Program-made: the position numbers and the translations under genes | Virus record (IMG/VR): IMGVR_UViG_2140918008_000001 | Location: 3,491 to 67,490 of that record | Reading direction: 5' to 3' (one strand) | Length of the DNA: 64,000 nt | From: a virus | Lineage: Duplodnaviria; Caudoviricetes | Shown here: piece by piece, positions 2,279 to 50,335 of the stretch | Layout: every line of letters starts with the position of its first letter | How positions within the stretch are numbered: the stretch's first letter is position 1 | The notes under the pieces: generated by a model | What the model was told of the DNA's origin: nothing | The model's input: the letters and a program-made list of their open reading frames with translations, nothing else | Database searches by the model: none

Positions 2279-2821
2279 ATGAAACGTTACATGAATGAGT
2301 TCTTCAAACTGAAATGCGCTCCAGATTTACTTGCTTGGAAATTATTTCCTAATGCTAAAGAGATTACTGAAAGTTTTGGTGCTTTTAAGGGAGTAAGAGA
2401 TGTTATCTTGGAGCCAACTAATTTACGATTTGATGATCCAAGTATTGTTTTAGTTTCTGTTGGGGATGGAGTTACTCCAAGAACTGCTGCTTTATTTGCT
2501 GTTAGAACATCCTGGGAATGTTATAGCGTTGATCCACTGATGAGAGTAGATGTAAATTATCCCATTGATCGTTTATCAGTAATCAAAGCAAAAATTGAAG
2601 ATTTGAAACTTGATTTTCCAGAACGTTCTGTAATCATTGTTTCTGTTCATGGACATGCAAAACTTAATGATATTCTGGAGCATATTCATGGAAAAGTACG
2701 CCACTTTCTGACTATTCCTTGTTGTATTTCTCATAATATTCCTAATAAAGTATACTTAGGATATACAGATACAAATATTTGGTCAGATAAAAATGAAGTA
2801 AAAGTATGGTTAAATATCTAA
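2279..2821 (+). CDS. hypothetical protein, possibly SAM-dependent methyltransferase-like
   Basis: VSVGDGVTPRT...YSVDP resembles a SAM-binding motif I/II; weak. Confidence 0.35.
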   Translation: MKRYMNEFFKLKCAPDLLAWKLFPNAKEITESFGAFKGVRDVILEPTNLRFDDPSIVLVSVGDGVTPRTAALFAVRTSWECYSVDPLMRVDVNYPIDRLSVIKAKIEDLKLDFPERSVIIVSVHGHAKLNDILEHIHGKVRHFLTIPCCISHNIPNKVYLGYTDTNIWSDKNEVKVWLNI

Positions 2822-2822
2822 A

Positions 2823-4505
2823 ATGAGATACAAAATGGAAATCCCACCAGTAGCGAAGCCAGATGATATTGTAGCCCTGGATAGTGAATGGTTCGGTTTA
2901 AATGAACGTAAATTACATCGGCCACAAGGCATCCAAACTTTCGCTTGTTGCCAATTCTCTTTTGATGGCGAAACAGCATACATCGTGACTGCTCCAGATG
3001 CTATAATAAAAGCTTACGATCATATTCGTAAAGCAACCTTAGTTTTCTGTAATGCTGCTTTCGACTATGTTCATCTCAGACAACTTGCTGAATTTCCACC
3101 AAAGAAAAAGATGTGGGATATTCAACTTTTCGAGAAGATTTTGTTTGGGGGATATTATAGTAAATTCTCTCTAAAAGATATGGTTCGCAGGTACTTCCAA
3201 GTAGCAATGCCTAAAGAAGCTAGAGAAGAATTTGCTAAAGGATCAGCAATGACTGAAGAAATGCTTCAATACGCTGCTGACGATGTTTGTTACACATGGA
3301 GGATTTATCAAGAACAGAATAAGATTGCTAGAGATGAGGATGTAAATATCTGGTATAACGTAGAATTACCGGCATTTTGGCCGACCATAGAATTTGCGGG
3401 CTTCCCCCTGAACGCTACTAAGTGGACAAATCTGGCAAATTTCAACAATGAAAAAGCTCTTGAACTTGAAAAGACCTTTACTTTCAATCCTGGTTCTCAT
3501 GTCCAGGTCAAAAAGTTTATCAAAGAGAATTACAAGATTGATCTAGAAAGTTCAGATGAAGCCCACCTGTTGAAAATACAAAATAAATGTGAGATTGCTA
3601 AAACGATCTTGGATTATCGGCATTATAAGAAACGGGCTTCTACTTATGGATTATCTTGGTTAGAAGCGATTGAAGCAGACGGTCGTGTACATTCTCAGTT
3701 TAATCAATTGGGAGCCGAGACTGGCCGATATAGTTCTGATAACATCAATTTACAGAATGTGCCACATGATCCTGAGACAAGAGGCTGTTTTGAAGCGCCT
3801 GAAGGATATGTACTTTGTAAAGCCGATTTTGCTGGACAAGAACCTCGCATAATTTGTCATCTTTCTAAGGATAAAGAATTAACTAACATTTTTATGCAAG
3901 GAAGGGATGTTCACTCAGAAGTTGCTCAACGCGTCTATGATACTGAAGAAAAGATTATTAAAGGCGATCCTAGAAGGGCCGTAGGAAAACGTGTTGAACT
4001 AATGTTAAGCTATGGGGCAAAAGCCAAAGGACTAGTACGTGCCTTATTAGATGAAGATAATATGGTAGTAACTGAGGAAGAAGCTCAACGATTCATCAAT
4101 GAATTTTTTAGTAATTTCCCAGGTGTCGAACAATATATGCAAAAGCAAAAAAAGTTTGCGGACAAATGGGAATATGTACTCAGCGCATTAGGAAGAAAAA
4201 TTCACGTAAATAAATATAGCTATCAATCAGAGAATTGCTCATCTAATTCCCCCATTCAAAGTACGGGGGCAGAAATGATAAAACTTGCTTTGGCTTCTTT
4301 TTATCAAGCATGGAAACCTGAGTGGGGGCCATTCGGGGTTTGTGCCGTAGTTCATGATGAAATTGATGTGATCTGTAAATATTCTGATGCTGAAGAAATC
4401 TCTAAAGTATTGAAATTCTGTATGGAAGAATCGGGAAAATCAATAATTGATCCTCTACCTTGTATAGCTGAAGTTGACATTTCCCAATCATGGGCTGGTG
4501 GATGA
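2823..4505 (+). CDS. polA: family A DNA polymerase with 3'-5' exonuclease domain
   Basis: Exo LDSEW / NAAFD / YAADD; TGRYSSDNINLQN; motif A DFAGQEPRI; motif B RAVGKRVELMLSYG; motif C VHDEI. Confidence 0.95.
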   Translation: MRYKMEIPPVAKPDDIVALDSEWFGLNERKLHRPQGIQTFACCQFSFDGETAYIVTAPDAIIKAYDHIRKATLVFCNAAFDYVHLRQLAEFPPKKKMWDIQLFEKILFGGYYSKFSLKDMVRRYFQVAMPKEAREEFAKGSAMTEEMLQYAADDVCYTWRIYQEQNKIARDEDVNIWYNVELPAFWPTIEFAGFPLNATKWTNLANFNNEKALELEKTFTFNPGSHVQVKKFIKENYKIDLESSDEAHLLKIQNKCEIAKTILDYRHYKKRASTYGLSWLEAIEADGRVHSQFNQLGAETGRYSSDNINLQNVPHDPETRGCFEAPEGYVLCKADFAGQEPRIICHLSKDKELTNIFMQGRDVHSEVAQRVYDTEEKIIKGDPRRAVGKRVELMLSYGAKAKGLVRALLDEDNMVVTEEEAQRFINEFFSNFPGVEQYMQKQKKFADKWEYVLSALGRKIHVNKYSYQSENCSSNSPIQSTGAEMIKLALASFYQAWKPEWGPFGVCAVVHDEIDVICKYSDAEEISKVLKFCMEESGKSIIDPLPCIAEVDISQSWAGG

Positions 4506-4508
4506 AAG

Positions 4509-4642
4509 TGTGATATAATATGAACTGTCAAGGAGAACACGGCTTTTTATTTTCTCAACGGACAGTTGCTATCTACAAGAAGCCTGATCTCCTTGACAAG
4601 AATCGGAGAAATGTAGATAGCAACTTTCTGTATCGAGGAGAC
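4509..4642 (+). promoter_or_regulatory. extended -10 promoter plus structured HNH leader, copy 1
   Basis: TGTGATATAAT 4509-19; A 4526-36/4588-98 (11 bp), B 4541-45/4580-84, C 4564-77/4612-25 (14 bp); GAGGAG 4635-40. Confidence 0.75.
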
Positions 4643-5296
4643 ATGGGAAGATTTGTGGATTTATCCGGAAGAAAATTCGGAAAACTTTTGGTAATTAAAC
4701 GAATGGGGACAGGAAATGATGGTCATATTTTTTGGGAATGTGTTTGTGATTGTGGAAATACAAAGACTAAAGTAGTTTCAGGAACTTCTTTAGTACAAGG
4801 TAAAACAAGATCATGTGGGTGTTTATATGTAGGACATCCAACTCATCACTGTAGAAATACTGCAACATATGCTGCCTGGACAAATATCCAACAAAGATGT
4901 GAAAATCCTAATGATGCTTCGTTTAAATTTTATGGAGCAAGAGGGATAACTGTTTGTGACAGATGGAAAGAAGGTTTCCAAAACTTTCTTGACGATATGG
5001 GAATGAAGCCCGGAGGAGGAGAAATTTCCATAGAAAGAATTGACAATAGCAAAGGATACAGTCCAGAAAATTGTCGATGGGCAACTCATAAAGAACAAAT
5101 GAATAATACTAGAATGAATCATTATATAACATTTAATAATGAAACATTGACTATGATGCAATGGTCTGAAAAAACAAATATTCCTTATGACACACTACGG
5201 AATAGAATTAATTCCTATGGATGGGCAATAGAGAAAGCTTTATTTACACCAGTAAGAACAAAACTATCGAACAATAAAATATATGAAAAAGGATAA
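4643..5296 (+). CDS. free-standing HNH-type homing endonuclease
   Basis: DLSGRKFGKLLV, CVCDCG, TRSCGC, QRCENP..YGARGITVCDRW, SIERIDNSKGYSPENCRWAT; start moved to ATG 4643 after the RBS. Confidence 0.85.
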   Translation: MGRFVDLSGRKFGKLLVIKRMGTGNDGHIFWECVCDCGNTKTKVVSGTSLVQGKTRSCGCLYVGHPTHHCRNTATYAAWTNIQQRCENPNDASFKFYGARGITVCDRWKEGFQNFLDDMGMKPGGGEISIERIDNSKGYSPENCRWATHKEQMNNTRMNHYITFNNETLTMMQWSEKTNIPYDTLRNRINSYGWAIEKALFTPVRTKLSNNKIYEKG

Positions 5297-5302
5297 GATA
5301 AA

Positions 5303-5599
5303 ATGAATAAAATTATGGTACTAAAAGCACATAGTCCGGCTATACATAAACTTGGAGATATTGGACAATCAGATACAGATGAATATATCCGAGTTTGTGA
5401 AGAAACCAAAAAATTCTATATTGGACATTTTGAAGAGGGATTTGGATTTATTGGAGTTCATTTCGCTAAGACAGATGTAAGACCTCTAACTAAAGAAGAA
5501 ATTGATGATGTAAACAAATGCTGGTATGTATTAGCAGGAATACCTCGATATAAGTTATCCTTTGACTATGAAGGAAATGTTAAAGATGACATCAAATAG
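5303..5599 (+). CDS. hypothetical protein
   Basis: ORF with AAGGA RBS in operon. Confidence 0.6.
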   Translation: MNKIMVLKAHSPAIHKLGDIGQSDTDEYIRVCEETKKFYIGHFEEGFGFIGVHFAKTDVRPLTKEEIDDVNKCWYVLAGIPRYKLSFDYEGNVKDDIK

Positions 5600-6146
5600 G
5601 CAAGTCTGTCCTCACTGTGCCACATCAGTTTTTCCCTGGCGTGGCCCTTCTAATGCTAAGATTGCTGTTCTTATGGATGAACCATCTATGGCAGATAAAG
5701 AAAAAATGACTGCCTTTTCTGGCCCCGCTGGTTGGGTGTTGAGGAATGAGATGGATCGTGCCTCTATTGATCTTTTCTCCTGTCGAAGGGGATATTTTTT
5801 CTACCACACTATGCCGGTAGGAAAAGAAGGAGAGGCTTGTCGAACAACATCAATTGAAGAAGCAATTCGAGAACTCAATAATAATCGACAAGCTGTGCTA
5901 TTATTAGGATCAAAATGTGTCAAGTATTTTACAAATGGTATTGGAGTTGACACAGTGTCAAGTCTCCCTATATCCTCTCCGTATATACATTGTAATAACA
6001 TTATGGCAGGGATCAGCCCTTTGAATGTTCTTTCTGGTACGGTAGGTGAGTTAAGATTGACGTGTTTTAGGTTTAACCAAATGTTGAATGACATTGATGA
6101 ACAACGTAGACAATCTTTTATTAAAGCATATGATGTAAAGGAGTGA
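5586..6146 (+). CDS. uracil-DNA glycosylase family 4-like (SPO1 polymerase-associated type) protein, degenerate
   Basis: CPHC..VFPWRGPSNAKIAVLMDEPS..D...AFSGPAGWVL matches the family-4 N-terminus; GEAPG replaced by MDEPS. Confidence 0.65.
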   Translation: MTSNRQVCPHCATSVFPWRGPSNAKIAVLMDEPSMADKEKMTAFSGPAGWVLRNEMDRASIDLFSCRRGYFFYHTMPVGKEGEACRTTSIEEAIRELNNNRQAVLLLGSKCVKYFTNGIGVDTVSSLPISSPYIHCNNIMAGISPLNVLSGTVGELRLTCFRFNQMLNDIDEQRRQSFIKAYDVKE

Positions 6147-6823
6147 AAATGAAAGACAATGATTTATTAGAACTAAATTCAGGTTTGGATCAGCCAATTC
6201 GATTAGAACTGTCCCCTATTGATCGAGTTGATGAAATTGTTTCTAAAGCTGTTCAGGATGAGGACATTACATCAGCCATTTCTGAAGCTAAACAAGCATT
6301 ATCTCTAGCTAGAATTTCTGGTCTATTTTTGGCAAAACTTCTCTACAAACTAGAAAAGAACTGGAATAAATTCTACATAGATAATGACTCATTTGTGGAT
6401 TACATCCATGTGGAACTGGGAATCGCTCCCATAACAATCTTACGATATTGCCGTGTTTGGTCTATGTTTGAGTCAAAACTTGTTCCACCAGAGTTAGAAG
6501 ATCAATTGAAAATGCGCCCTCTTCGTGATCTTGTAGCAATTTCTACGGCAGTATCACAAGAATATGATATACCGCAAACTACCTGGGAAACTCTTACATC
6601 GGCTGAAAATTCCAGTGTTGTTAGTGAAACTTTACGACAAATTAAGGGAACCGAACCGCGTAGTGGATCGTTAGTTTTGAAACTAAAAAGAAATGGAGAC
6701 ATTCAATGTTGGTCTGGCGGAGAACAGCATTTTGTTGGATATGTCTCTCTGGAGGATGAAAATGAATCCGTTCAAGCTGCTATTGAACGTATCATAAATG
6801 GTGCAGGACTAATTAGGGAATAA
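6143..6823 (+). CDS. hypothetical protein
   Basis: 226-aa ORF overlapping neighbours in operon. Confidence 0.65.
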   Translation: MKMKDNDLLELNSGLDQPIRLELSPIDRVDEIVSKAVQDEDITSAISEAKQALSLARISGLFLAKLLYKLEKNWNKFYIDNDSFVDYIHVELGIAPITILRYCRVWSMFESKLVPPELEDQLKMRPLRDLVAISTAVSQEYDIPQTTWETLTSAENSSVVSETLRQIKGTEPRSGSLVLKLKRNGDIQCWSGGEQHFVGYVSLEDENESVQAAIERIINGAGLIRE

Positions 6824-9856: not shown

Positions 9857-10088
9857 GAACAAAACAATAATTTTTTCTGTCATAAATAAAGAAGATCATT
9901 TAGAAAATAGAGCAGTAGAATTAAGAACAAATGATCTTGCTCTAAATTCCTATGAATTGGGAATACTAGATTTCAATGAAGAAATACATATTACTCTAAC
10001 TAGAGACGAAGTGTTAGACCTTATAAAAGCCTTTGGTTCTTTTATAACACTTACAAGTTCAGTATTGAGTCGCAACCAGACATGCTAG
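9855..10088 (+). CDS. hypothetical protein
   Basis: ORF with AAGGAG RBS. Confidence 0.55.
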   Translation: MNKTIIFSVINKEDHLENRAVELRTNDLALNSYELGILDFNEEIHITLTRDEVLDLIKAFGSFITLTSSVLSRNQTC

Positions 10089-10091
10089 AAA

Positions 10092-10233
10092 TGTGGTATA
10101 ATATGGAGGTCTAGGAAATTTCGAGTGCTTTTTATTTTGTCAACGAAAGGCTGTCCATTTGTGGTAAGCACCGATTTCTTAGACAAAAATCGACAAAAAC
10201 ACAATGGACAGCCTTTTGTATTGAGGAGTGGAA
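10092..10233 (+). promoter_or_regulatory. extended -10 promoter plus structured HNH leader, copy 2
   Basis: TGTGGTATAAT 10092-102; A 10109-19/10174-84, B 10125-30/10166-71, C 10146-63/10200-16; GAGGAG 10223-28. Confidence 0.75.
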
Positions 10234-10863
10234 ATGGGAAGAAAAAATATTGATCGCACAGGTAAGAAATATAACAAACTTCTCGTTATAGAAGAAGCAG
10301 GTAAAGACACAAAAGGAAATTTTTTGTGGAAATGTCAGTGTGATTGCGGAAAAATAATTACAGTTTCGGGAAAAAACCTTAATAATGGGGACGTAAAATC
10401 TTGTGGGTGTTTACGTGATGGACATCCAAAACATGGTCTTGTGTATACTCCCACTTATGAAATATGGTGTGGCATGAAGAAACGGTGTACTAATCCAAAT
10501 TGTGTTGCATGGAAAAATTATGGTGGACGTGGAATTACCCTCTGTGAACGTTGGATGAAATTTGAAAACTTCTATGCCGATATGGGAGAACGTCCTGAAG
10601 GTCTTTCTATTGATCGCATAGATAATAATGGAAATTATGAGCCAGGAAACTGCCGGTGGGCAACCAACACTGAACAAGCAAATAATACTCGCCAAAATCA
10701 TTATCTTACTTACAAAGGGGAAACAAAAACTATCAAGCAATGGGCAAAAGAGTTCAATATGTTATATAGCACTCTATGTGGCAGAATAATAAATTATAAA
10801 TGGCCTATTGAGAAGGCATTAACAGAACCTCTTTATATAGGTGGTCAGTATCCAAAAGCCTAA
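10234..10863 (+). CDS. free-standing HNH-type homing endonuclease (paralog of 4643-5296)
   Basis: DRTGKKYNKLLV, CQCDCG, KSCGC, KRCTNP..YGGRGITLCERW, SIDRIDNNGNYEPGNCRWAT. Confidence 0.85.
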   Translation: MGRKNIDRTGKKYNKLLVIEEAGKDTKGNFLWKCQCDCGKIITVSGKNLNNGDVKSCGCLRDGHPKHGLVYTPTYEIWCGMKKRCTNPNCVAWKNYGGRGITLCERWMKFENFYADMGERPEGLSIDRIDNNGNYEPGNCRWATNTEQANNTRQNHYLTYKGETKTIKQWAKEFNMLYSTLCGRIINYKWPIEKALTEPLYIGGQYPKA

Positions 10864-26468: not shown

Positions 26469-26789
26469 TTATTTTCCCTTTGGCTTAATTACATCTAAAA
26501 CAGAAAGTAGACCTGAACGATAACCCCACTGCCAATTATCAATAGGATTGAAAATCATATTTGATTTCAAGGCATCTACAATAGCTTGTAATTGAGACTC
26601 AGCTTTCTCAGCACGATGTTGCCAATCTGCATAATTATCATGATCTTGCTCAATACGTTTTTCAAGTCCTGCAATCTTACTACGATAAATATCTCCCTCA
26701 CAACCAGTTTTGAGACATCGCATCTCAATAATAGTTCCATGAGATTCCTTTTTTATATATTCAGCATATGCTTCTTCAAGTGTAGTCAT
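26469..26789 (-). CDS. hypothetical coiled-coil protein
   Basis: ORF in operon. Confidence 0.55.
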   Translation of the reverse strand: MTTLEEAYAEYIKKESHGTIIEMRCLKTGCEGDIYRSKIAGLEKRIEQDHDNYADWQHRAEKAESQLQAIVDALKSNMIFNPIDNWQWGYRSGLLSVLDVIKPKGK

Positions 26790-27286
26790 TCTATTTTATC
26801 CTCATATTCTTTATCTCTATTGATCCACTCTTCAGGAAAATTGAGCCAAGCAAACTCCCCAAATAACTCTACGGCCCTCTTGTCGTAAACATGAGCAGCC
26901 TCTTCAGATGTTTTGAAACTTCCTAAATGCATTTCCTTAAAAAATAATTTTATTCTGGAAAACCACACATGATCTCTCATGCAATAAGTAATTCCTTTAA
27001 ATCCAGAGGTATTATTTTTAGAAAGAGGCCGATTTCGCTGATTTTCAGATTTATTACATAATCTTAAATTACTTCTGCAATTGTTAAAAGTATTTCTATC
27101 AATATGATCTACTTGTTTTCCTTCTGGAGTAGTCAAAACAAGATGATGTAAGTAAATATCTTCTCCTTTAGAAGTTCGTAAAGCATATCCGCCTTTACCA
27201 CAACGCCATTTCCACTGATTCAAATACTCAAACATATCGTCATCAACTAGAGTAACTTTTCCTTGTGTCAAAGGTATTTCTTTCAT
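26786..27286 (-). CDS. HNH endonuclease with C-terminal AP2 domain
   Basis: KEIPLTQGKVTLVDD, VDHIDRNTFNNCRSNLR, NNTSGFKG, AAHVYDKRAVELFGEFAWLNFP; ATG 27286 after AAGGA. Confidence 0.9.
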   Translation of the reverse strand: MKEIPLTQGKVTLVDDDMFEYLNQWKWRCGKGGYALRTSKGEDIYLHHLVLTTPEGKQVDHIDRNTFNNCRSNLRLCNKSENQRNRPLSKNNTSGFKGITYCMRDHVWFSRIKLFFKEMHLGSFKTSEEAAHVYDKRAVELFGEFAWLNFPEEWINRDKEYEDKIE

Positions 27287-27418
27287 TTTTCCTTTTAACA
27301 AAGACCTGCTATCTACCTTTTCCAGTTCTTGCTGATGGAACAGGGCGTATGTAGATAGCAGGTCTTTGTTGGAAAATAAAAACGCCTCACATCCCATCAG
27401 CAATCCTATTATACCACA
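27287..27418 (-). promoter_or_regulatory. extended -10 promoter plus structured HNH leader, copy 3
   Basis: TGTGGTATAAT 27418-408; A 27403-392/27340-329, B 27386-83/27347-44, C 27370-51/27316-297 (20 bp perfect). Confidence 0.75.
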
Positions 27419-48582: not shown

Positions 48583-48754
48583 TTGACATAAACATAAAAA
48601 GGATGTATACTAAAAATGTTGAGGGTGTAGCATCCCAAGACAAGAAAGCCATACTGCATCTACCCAAACCACTATTTATCTTTGGTTTGTAGTCTCCTAT
48701 GTGGATGCAGGATGCTACAGACTACATACCAAAAATAAGGAGTGGTTTTTGTTT
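48583..48754 (+). promoter_or_regulatory. sigma70 promoter plus structured HNH leader, copy 4
   Basis: TTGACA-17-TATACT; A 48626-35/48710-19, B 48655-63/48701-09, C 48666-95/48719-48 containing RBS AAGGAG. Confidence 0.7.
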
Positions 48755-49315
48755 ATGCCCAATCACAATGCAAAACCAGAGAGAAATCAAGAAATTAGAG
48801 ATATGTGGAAAGATGGAAAAACATTAAAAACCATAGGAATAAAATTTGGGATTACAAAAAGACGAGTAAGTTTTTTAATTAAAGGAGTAGATAGAAAGAC
48901 AGCCCCCAAAACATATTCTTATTCATATGTTCGTCCAAGACACAACAAATATTATGGAATAAGGCATAGTGACACGGTAAAATTTTGGGAACATGTAAAA
49001 ATTGGAAATAAAGATGAATGTTGGGAATGGTTAGGGGGGAAATCACACGGATATGGCACAGTAATAATAAATACAGAGCATAAACAAGCCCATGATTTTG
49101 CCTATGAGTGGGTAAATGGGCCTATTCCCATAGGGTTAGAGGCATGTCATAAATGTAATAATAAAGGGTGCTGTAATCCAAATCATATCTACGCAGGAAC
49201 ACGACAACAAAATATGGATGATTTGCATGAACGGTATGTACGAGGAGAACTAGTTCGGATAGGTAAATATTACCCAAGACGACCAAAACAAGATAAAAAC
49301 ATAGCGACCCCATAA
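48755..49315 (+). CDS. HTH + HNH (HNH_3-like) endonuclease
   Basis: RNQEIRDMW..TLKTIGIKFGITKRRV HTH; ECWEW, AHDFAYE, ACHKCNNKGCCNPNHI..GTRQQN. Confidence 0.85.
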   Translation: MPNHNAKPERNQEIRDMWKDGKTLKTIGIKFGITKRRVSFLIKGVDRKTAPKTYSYSYVRPRHNKYYGIRHSDTVKFWEHVKIGNKDECWEWLGGKSHGYGTVIINTEHKQAHDFAYEWVNGPIPIGLEACHKCNNKGCCNPNHIYAGTRQQNMDDLHERYVRGELVRIGKYYPRRPKQDKNIATP

Positions 49316-50262: not shown

Positions 50263-50335
50263 GGACTTGTAGCGCAACGGATAGCGCAGTAGATTTCTAA
50301 TCTATTGGTTGATGGTTCAAATCCATCCAAGTCCA
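50263..50335 (+). tRNA. tRNA-Arg(UCU), CCA not encoded
   Basis: Acceptor GGACTTG/CAAGTCC, D arm, anticodon stem GTAGA/TCTAT with loop TT-TCT-AA, T arm GATGG-TTCAAAT-CCATC. Confidence 0.92.

Follow-up and report, generated by a model that had tools for sequence, protein, structure and literature searches.

Crossing, covarying helices in a phage leader RNA upstream of HNH endonuclease and other accessory genes, and their possible role in gating translation

We analysed the leader that precedes a free-standing HNH endonuclease gene, here called HNH1, in an uncultured soil phage. The window, i.e. the whole stretch of DNA that was analysed, comprises 64,000 nucleotides (nt) and corresponds to positions 3491–67490 of a 67,490-base-pair (bp) IMG/VR virus record (IMGVR_UViG_2140918008_000001); the leader occupies positions 4509–4645 of this window. 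We are near certain that the leader is a real, selected structure of the sense-strand RNA and that it belongs to a family that is not in Rfam. Furthermore, we propose from the modelled folds that it acts in cis as a translational gate, by means of competing or pseudoknotted folds, and we estimate the probability of this reading at about one half. The leader is possibly a 5' stabiliser in addition.

The leader in front of HNH1 (copy 1) lies on the plus strand, directly downstream of polA, which ends at position 4505. It begins with an extended -10 promoter of the TRTGnTATAAT type (TGTGATATAAT, 4509–4519, by sequence reading). The TATAAT hexamer is followed after 6 nt by helix A, which starts at about +1, and the 5' strands of helices A and B (4526–4545) form the extreme 5' end of the predicted transcript. 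Helix A has 11 bp and joins 4526–4536 (A) to 4588–4598 (A'); inside it, helix B, as read from the sequence, joins 4541–4545 (B) to 4580–4584 (B'). An invariant U-rich tract, TTTTATTTT followed by CAAC, fills the alignment columns that correspond to 4544–4559. Helix C has a core of 14 bp (C 4564–4577, C' 4612–4625) and a basal extension, with which its 5' strand covers 4558–4577 (extension ACGGA at 4558–4562) and its 3' strand, which is the 3' strand of a long hairpin, covers 4612–4631 (extension TCTGT). B' and A' (4580–4598) sit in the apical loop of this hairpin, and an A-rich linker (4599–4611) lies between A' and C'. The Shine–Dalgarno (SD) sequence GAGGAG (4635–4640) and the ATG start codon (4643–4645) of HNH1, a gene of the phrog_374 type (4643–5296), come next. 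The leader RNA is about 115 nt long. A previous sequence-only reading had described the interleaved order A, B, C, B', A', C', followed by GAGGAG and ATG, and our direct reading of 4300–4800 found each of these elements in its place.

The evidence for structure comes from covariation within a family of eight homologous leaders, of which three are found in this genome (copies 1–3) and five elsewhere. Helices A, B and C were counted in a seven-sequence MAFFT alignment (A4). Double changes occur in 9 of the 12 pairs of helix A, where 96% of the cells are paired, and in 16 of the 21 pairs of the extended helix C, where 92% are paired; together, 25/33 pairs are doubly changed and 93.7% of cells are paired. 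As a control, we slid the partners by 1–3 columns, which resulted in a pairing of 35–45%, and no shuffle reached the observed score. Helix B pairs in 7/7 members with different sequences (GGCUU, GUGCUU, GGCG, GGUGCU, CCUGGG, GUC and UCGA). The crossing helices A, B and C are therefore kept by compensatory change, as the retained pairing described earlier had suggested. In the helices, G.U exceeds A.C by 14 to 1, and we thus conclude that the structure is one of sense-strand RNA, and not of DNA or antisense RNA. Helix C was included in the models that were used to search for members, and its pairing in the retrieved members is partly by construction. The pairing of A, B and E (described below) in these members constitutes an independent test, because these helices were outside the search-model structures. 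The divergent member L269 contains a perfect 13-bp helix A and a 19-bp helix C, again with different sequences, and no convincing helix B. At the position of B' (L269:1138–1145), it carries GCGCUCC, a perfect complement of its SD region GGAGCGC at 1190–1197; L269 may be a variant whose loop is itself an anti-SD sequence.

A fourth covarying helix, E, is absent from the earlier description. In L269, the bases just 5' of C form a perfect 10-bp complement with the bases just 5' of C'. In the other members, the same interaction joins the downstream half of the U tract (UUUU-NN-C, followed by AAC) to the last bases of the linker (G-NN-AAAA, followed by C'); in copy 1, these strands are TTTCTC at 4551–4556 (E) and GAGAAA at 4606–4611 (E'). 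We counted helix E by script over the eight sequences, anchored on the C–G pair. Positions -6 to -1 are paired in 48/48 cells, four positions covary (UA, CG, GC, GU and AU) and 0/5000 column shuffles were as good. The U-rich stretch had previously been read as a loop. It is indeed kept in copies 1–3, but it is more than a plain loop: its bases form helix E with the linker and are able to pair with the start region.

With helix E, the full order becomes A-B-E-C-B'-A'-E'-C', which contains three mutually crossing helix sets. A/B crosses C and E crosses both; the leader thus has crossing helices that each show covariation, as in pseudoknotted RNAs of the H-type or of the abcABC type, whose three helices all cross one another. 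The A/B helices comprise 16–20 bp, E 6–10 bp and C 14–21 bp. A/B joins the 5' terminus to the apical-loop sequence of hairpin C, and helix C ends 0–3 nt before the SD sequence. When E was enforced in a nested fold, the energy was just -18 to -31 kcal/mol, much weaker than the alternatives, and E is thus sensible only together with A/B. By geometric reasoning, A/B and C can coexist if the U tract (12–18 nt) and the linker (13–14 nt) span the helices, and the start site would then be open. Helix E and the extended helix C cannot both have their full length. The junctions are 0–1 nt in L269 and in a further leader of this genome (copy 4, see below), which argues against all of their helices being full-length at once. 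An additional apical hairpin (D), formed by B'/A' with the linker, was rejected as it is weak and no better than in shuffles.

The other two homologous copies of the window keep the order of elements with different stem sequences and retain TTTTATTTT..CAAC, as had been stated and as we found by direct reading. Copy 2 (10092–10236, plus strand) contains helices A (10110–10119/10174–10183), B (10125–10130/10166–10171), E (10135–10141/10192–10198) and C (10149–10163/10200–10213); it precedes HNH2 (10234–10863, plus strand) and has a covariance-model score of 120.7 bits. Copy 3 is found on the minus strand (27418–27284), with A at 27401–27392/27340–27331, B at 27386–27383/27347–27344, E at 27376–27371/27323–27318 and C at 27364–27351/27316–27303. 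It scores 133.4 bits and precedes HNH3 (27286–26786, minus strand), a gene of the HNH_3/AP2 type. A pattern of TATAAT, 15–45 nt, TTTTATTTT, 1–4 nt and CAAC occurs 3 times in the window, compared to 0.00 expected from shuffles. Furthermore, the 5' tail pairs with the apical loop (-23 to -31 kcal/mol; z-scores between -4.6 and -6.8), and 0/500 shuffles were as good.

To find members outside this genome, we used two covariance models. The first (R1) was built from the three window copies, with the long hairpin as its sole structure, and recovers only copies 1–3 on the window. R1 and pattern scans were applied to IMG/VR and JGI metagenomes, and protein-guided loci were then searched with the second model (R2). 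This wider search yielded five extra members, all on uncultured-phage or metagenome contigs. Most members were found by patterns that demand the promoter and the U tract; L269 was found without the promoter in its search. Three members precede HNH genes: L213 (185–320, minus strand) a classic CxxC..HH HNH gene, L199 (181–313) an HNH_3/AP2 gene, and L269 (1080–1211, detected with R2 among loci of HNH_3/AP2 homologues) also an HNH_3/AP2 gene. L046 (5428–5563, detected by R1 and pattern scan) precedes a gene for a T5orf172/MUG113 protein and L191 (109–238) a gene for a replication-type protein with HTH_36 and DnaB_2. In all eight members (8/8), helix A begins 5–6 nt after TATAAT, at about +1, behind the same promoter.

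The leader had been presented as a feature of HNH genes, and this description does not hold. Since it is also found before the T5orf172 gene and the replication-initiation-type HTH_36/DnaB_2 gene, we conclude that it is not HNH-specific and is a portable module of accessory or selfish genes. The same gene set bears on the earlier idea of a structured RNA that serves the nucleases as a partner. There are HNH proteins that have a dedicated RNA, such as the nuclease IscB with its HEARO RNA (now omega RNA), and a compact multi-helix fold with invariant single-stranded UUUUA and CAAC and an A-rich linker could suit a trans-acting partner or a riboswitch-like aptamer that binds a ligand or a protein. 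However, no single protein partner fits, because the leader precedes several unrelated protein types, namely three unrelated HNH types, T5orf172 and HTH_36/DnaB_2. In addition, no Rfam riboswitch or HEARO match was found, and the gene set suggests no metabolite. The idea is thus weakened, and we regard a partner or aptamer function as highly improbable.

The leader had not been recognised as a named RNA family before, which is in agreement with our searches of Rfam 15, whose families include HEARO/omega RNA, riboswitches and small ribozymes: at the gathering threshold, the window contains a transfer RNA (tRNA) only, and a search at E <= 5 on the four leader loci resulted in two chance-level matches elsewhere. 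The tRNA gene (50263–50335, 73.2 bits) is the sole Rfam match in the window. A megablast search of 2800–6200 against phages found no close relatives; polA has no relatives in IMG/VR, and its tblastn matches in cultured phages are at most 28% identical. Two leaders had no real blastn match in 50,697 phage records, with no similar DNA in cultured phages, and a scan of 185,579 species genomes found no member. Looser DNA patterns in IMG/VR resulted in nearly all chance matches. The leader was found in none of the 36 examined loci with HNH2 relatives, and two examined loci with HNH4 relatives contained nothing comparable.

Further members may be hidden by gene annotation. In copies 1 and 3, the leader is frame-open with the HNH open reading frame (4520–5296 and 26786–27403 on the minus strand), and programs that call open reading frames therefore run the gene through the leader. 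Several HNH_3/AP2 homologues in databases (P0005, P0007, P0010, P0106 and P0014) have N-terminal extensions that resemble translated leaders, in which YYN corresponds to TATAAT, and EAFFICQQ, EALLFSKQ and DFLFQNK correspond to the U tract with CAAC. Judged from these residues, we take the extensions to be mis-called starts, and those of P0007, P0010, P0106 and P0014 likely point to further family members.

How could this structure affect translation? We folded growing transcripts in nested mode, which yields predicted energies. At 80–100 nt, A/B is the minimum-energy fold (-25 to -34 kcal/mol). At full length, the optimum is a hairpin of about 30 bp (-41 to -53 kcal/mol), which consists of C, the extension AACGRA:UYUGUU and the U tract on the SD sequence and AUG. 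The SD sequence and AUG are paired in the predicted full-length minimum-energy folds of 6/7 alignment members and of copy 4. With the 5' part occupied by other pairing, the predicted mean unpaired probability of positions -15 to +5 increases from 0.21–0.34 to 0.57–0.73 in 5/6 members; for the start region of copy 1, it is 0.28 in the free fold and 0.57 with the 5' part occupied. In copies 1–3, according to our reading of the predicted folds, the U of AUG can lie opposite the one A of UUUUAUUUU. The U tract is a pairing partner of both E' and the start region, which makes these two explicit competitors for it. A run of U can pair with any purine-rich start region via G.U pairs, which would explain how one invariant tract serves different genes. 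A two-state switch had been suggested before, and nested folding agrees with it in so far as A/B is predicted first, with the start open, and then the extended C hairpin over the SD sequence and AUG.

Based on these folds, we propose the following gate. The leader and its promoter form the front of a self-contained expression cassette, in which the host-type extended -10 promoter would start transcription at the first leader base. During synthesis, the very stable A/B hairpin would be the first to close, around a loop that contains the U tract and C. E' would then capture the U tract, which would leave the start site open (ON). Alternatively, C would zip to the hairpin of about 30 bp, with the U tract paired to the SD sequence and AUG at its base (OFF). 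The balance or timing of the two folds would cap the yield of nuclease, or of another accessory protein, per transcript. As its 5' terminus is paired, the ON fold would probably also shield the messenger RNA (mRNA) from 5'-end-dependent decay.

Several observations weigh against such a gate. No signal that flips the switch was identified. In L213, the predicted accessibility remains nearly unchanged (0.52 to 0.55), and L046, alone among the members, has no SD sequence or AUG after helix C. The pairing of the U tract with the start region (-6 to -12 kcal/mol, with many G.U pairs) is weak and follows from composition; it can also not covary, because the U tract is invariant. The family consists of eight sequences only, some of which are related, and the shuffle statistics thus overstate independence. 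The full sequence is found in soil-metagenome DNA runs only, which may be its source, with no RNA run listed. Lastly, a rough estimate that sums duplex energies with a penalty of 9.6 kcal/mol gives -43 to -59 kcal/mol for the A/B + C pseudoknot, at or below the energy of the long hairpin (-40 to -51 kcal/mol in this comparison), and the RNA may therefore sit in one static knotted fold with an open start. In L046, about 170 nt of pentanucleotide repeats (GGCAA/CACGG units, L046:5568–5748) are found between the leader and the T5orf172 gene.

The energy comparison also speaks for a different explanation, a static knotted 5' cap in which A/B and C, and possibly E, are present at the same time. It would stabilise the mRNA against 5'-end-dependent decay, such as the entry of RNase J or RNase E, with the start open and no switching. 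As helix A starts close to +1 in every member, the 5' terminus is base-paired; all helices are under selection. By a geometric estimate, the loops between B and C (12–18 nt) and between A' and C' (13–14 nt) are long enough to span the helices. The promoter and the strong SD sequence suggest a Gram-positive host, and 5' stabilisers matter in Gram-positive hosts. Furthermore, L046 keeps the fold without an adjacent start site. However, stabilisation would require no more than a simple 5' hairpin. A static cap also leaves unexplained why the U tract is complementary to both E' and the start region, and why helices abut with 0–1 nt in L269 and copy 4. We consider such a cap possible, if rather doubtful. 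A more elaborate model places all four helices in one molecule as a threaded, knot-like three-way junction. This fold would need helix A at a free 5' terminus, as in transcripts from the leader's own promoter, and it could act both as an RNase J-type decay block and as a topological sensor, with own transcripts open and read-through transcripts silent. We think it unlikely that the RNA adopts this threaded form.

The long duplexes that underlie the proposed gate could also be substrates of RNase III or another double-strand nuclease, which would cut the hairpin of about 30 bp or the A/B helix of about 20 bp and thereby free the start site or trigger decay. Activation by RNase III has precedents in phages (lambda N and T7 0.3), and the duplexes here are long and nearly perfect (20–30 bp). 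Nevertheless, processing leaves helix E and the crossing topology unexplained, and none of the candidate cut sites lies in conserved helix sequence. We thus judge a processing site to be very unlikely.

The position of the leader between genes is informative for a further explanation. The promoter starts 0–5 nt past the stop codon of the upstream gene. In the window copies (4503–4519, 10086–10102 and 27424–27408 on the minus strand), a stop codon is followed by AAR and TGTGRTATAAT, with three bases between stop and promoter; the upstream stop codon of L046 and L191 overlaps or abuts the promoter. From this arrangement, gene ends look like the preferred insertion point of the cassette, and a promoter adjacent to the stop is as expected for a cassette that was dropped between phage genes and is open to read-through. 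The TRTGnTATAAT promoter is presumably of the '-16 region' type of Gram-positive bacteria and, together with the strong SD sequences, is suggestive of a Bacillota-like host.

In Gram-positive hosts, attenuation is a common mechanism, and the leader might be a transcription attenuator or a stand-alone small RNA, with C and UUUCUGU, UUUUGU or UUUGUU as the terminator and A/B as the antiterminator, which would keep the 5' arm of C enclosed in its loop. All members have a U-rich run after C' and an A-rich run before C, and the lack of a start site after C in L046 would fit. In addition, a weak apical hairpin would aid the nucleation of C, and A/B is in competition with it. Yet the features of an intrinsic terminator (a G+C-rich stem, a short loop and a U tract) are not found together at the leaders, where a partial U run is present: the loop of C has 31–36 nt, far beyond terminator norms, the U run is paired to the A run in the predicted fold, and a terminator scan lists none at the leaders. 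The SD sequence follows within 0–3 nt. A terminator between phage genes would cut off the downstream genes, and the location of the cassette directly after the upstream stop therefore argues against a strong terminator in the leader. Overall, attenuation or a small RNA appears improbable to us. Three other candidates were rejected. The members do not agree on a small terminator hairpin upstream of the U tract. Copy 1 contains TTGACA in the loop, but the -10-like part of such an internal sigma-70 promoter lies in the covarying C'. A link to the TTGACAC..GTGTCAA palindrome of the genome is unsupported, with TTGACA found in copy 1 only.

The gate logic can also be compared to a fourth leader of the window, copy 4 (48584–48757, plus strand), which precedes HNH4 (48755–49315, plus strand). 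It has a TTGACA-17-TATACT promoter and a long hairpin that covers AAGGAG. It is missed by both R1 and R2 on its own strand (thresholds of E <= 10 and E <= 1) and shares no sequence homology, and we thus treat it as analogous, not homologous. Its 5' tail pairs with 19/24 apical-loop bases of the SD-covering hairpin at -26.7 kcal/mol (z about -5), and 0/1000 shuffles were as good. In nested folding, the A/B fold is optimal at 120–130 nt and the hairpin at full length. Copy 4 is apparently a second, independent instance of the same design, represented by one sequence (n=1). The four leaders had been grouped as alike; this applies to copies 1–3 by homology, whereas copy 4 resembles them in design and logic, not in sequence.

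As reported before, three groups are represented among the four HNH genes: two phrog_374 paralogues, one HNH_3/AP2 gene (phrog_99) and one gene of the phrog_1872/826 type. Genome-wide scans with HNH_3, HNH and phrog_374 revealed no further clear HNH genes and one weak, sub-threshold match to PF01844 (47726–47851, minus strand, 15.8 bits). The latter is found in a 92-codon open frame without a leader, which possibly encodes a small packaging-associated HNH protein.

By analogy, the logic of the proposed gate is closest to the leader of the MS2 maturation gene and to the hairpins of T4 homing endonuclease genes, with parallels in toxin mRNAs. Hairpins that sequester the ribosome-binding site (RBS) silence T4-type homing endonuclease genes (I-TevI, I-TevII, I-TevIII, segB and mobE; PMC2988022). 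As in T4, a homing-type nuclease gene is found here behind a very stable hairpin that is predicted to be able to bury the SD sequence and AUG, in a cassette between phage genes that is open to read-through transcription. The T4 switch is a promoter inside the hairpin, from which late transcripts without the 5' arm are made (PMC2988022). In contrast, the promoter here is upstream of everything, the additional covarying helices A/B and E cross the hairpin, and no sequence similarity exists; as C and C' covary, no conserved -10 sequence is present inside the hairpin. Another hairpin, that of seg43(25) in Aeromonas phage 25, is very stable and ends immediately upstream of the RBS; its function is untested (PMC2988022). 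It abuts the endonuclease RBS without covering it, like helix C, but it is a single hairpin for which crossing helices are not described.

The maturation gene of MS2 (Levivirus) is translated only while a transient hairpin keeps an upstream complementary sequence off the SD sequence (PMC4615214). Similarly, an upstream complement here pairs with the SD sequence in the final fold and an earlier structure withholds it, in silico. MS2 is an RNA phage whose genome forms a nested cloverleaf, whereas here we find a DNA-phage mRNA leader with crossing helices, and a typical transient hairpin is far less stable than the early A/B structure (-25 to -34 kcal/mol). Type I toxin mRNAs use metastable hairpins that sequester the SD sequence (hok, tisB and aapA3; PMC6733600). 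The likeness consists of harmful products that are restrained by folds with the 5' end and by successive SD-sequestering structures. The leaders differ in that we found no antisense RNA gene or 3' processing signal and that the products are nucleases and not membrane peptides. With respect to a decay block, a flaviviral exonuclease-resistant RNA (xrRNA) blocks bacterial RNase J1 in vitro (PMC5760640). Such RNAs are alike in size (about 70–110 nt), in having several crossing helices and in engaging the 5' end with an internal loop. They are located in the 3' untranslated regions of eukaryotic viruses, they have no sequence or proven structural likeness to the leader, and the threading of the 5' end is a possibility here.

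Free-standing homing endonuclease genes need to be expressed without harm to the phage that carries them. To our knowledge, the hairpin and internal late promoter of T4 represent the only well-studied solution for their expression. The leaders described here represent a different, portable solution, where one promoter-leader module serves at least four types of nuclease, as well as two accessory genes of other kinds, across uncultured phages that are unrelated. If the gate reading is true, the leader would be a new cis-regulatory RNA design, in which a 5'-terminal segment and the linker act against the start site through a pseudoknot, and it would provide a compact, sequence-programmable part for the control of toxic genes. 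If the helices coexist, the leader would be a rare natural triple-crossing RNA fold, and the threaded form, if true, would make it a bacterial-phage counterpart of exonuclease-resistant RNAs.

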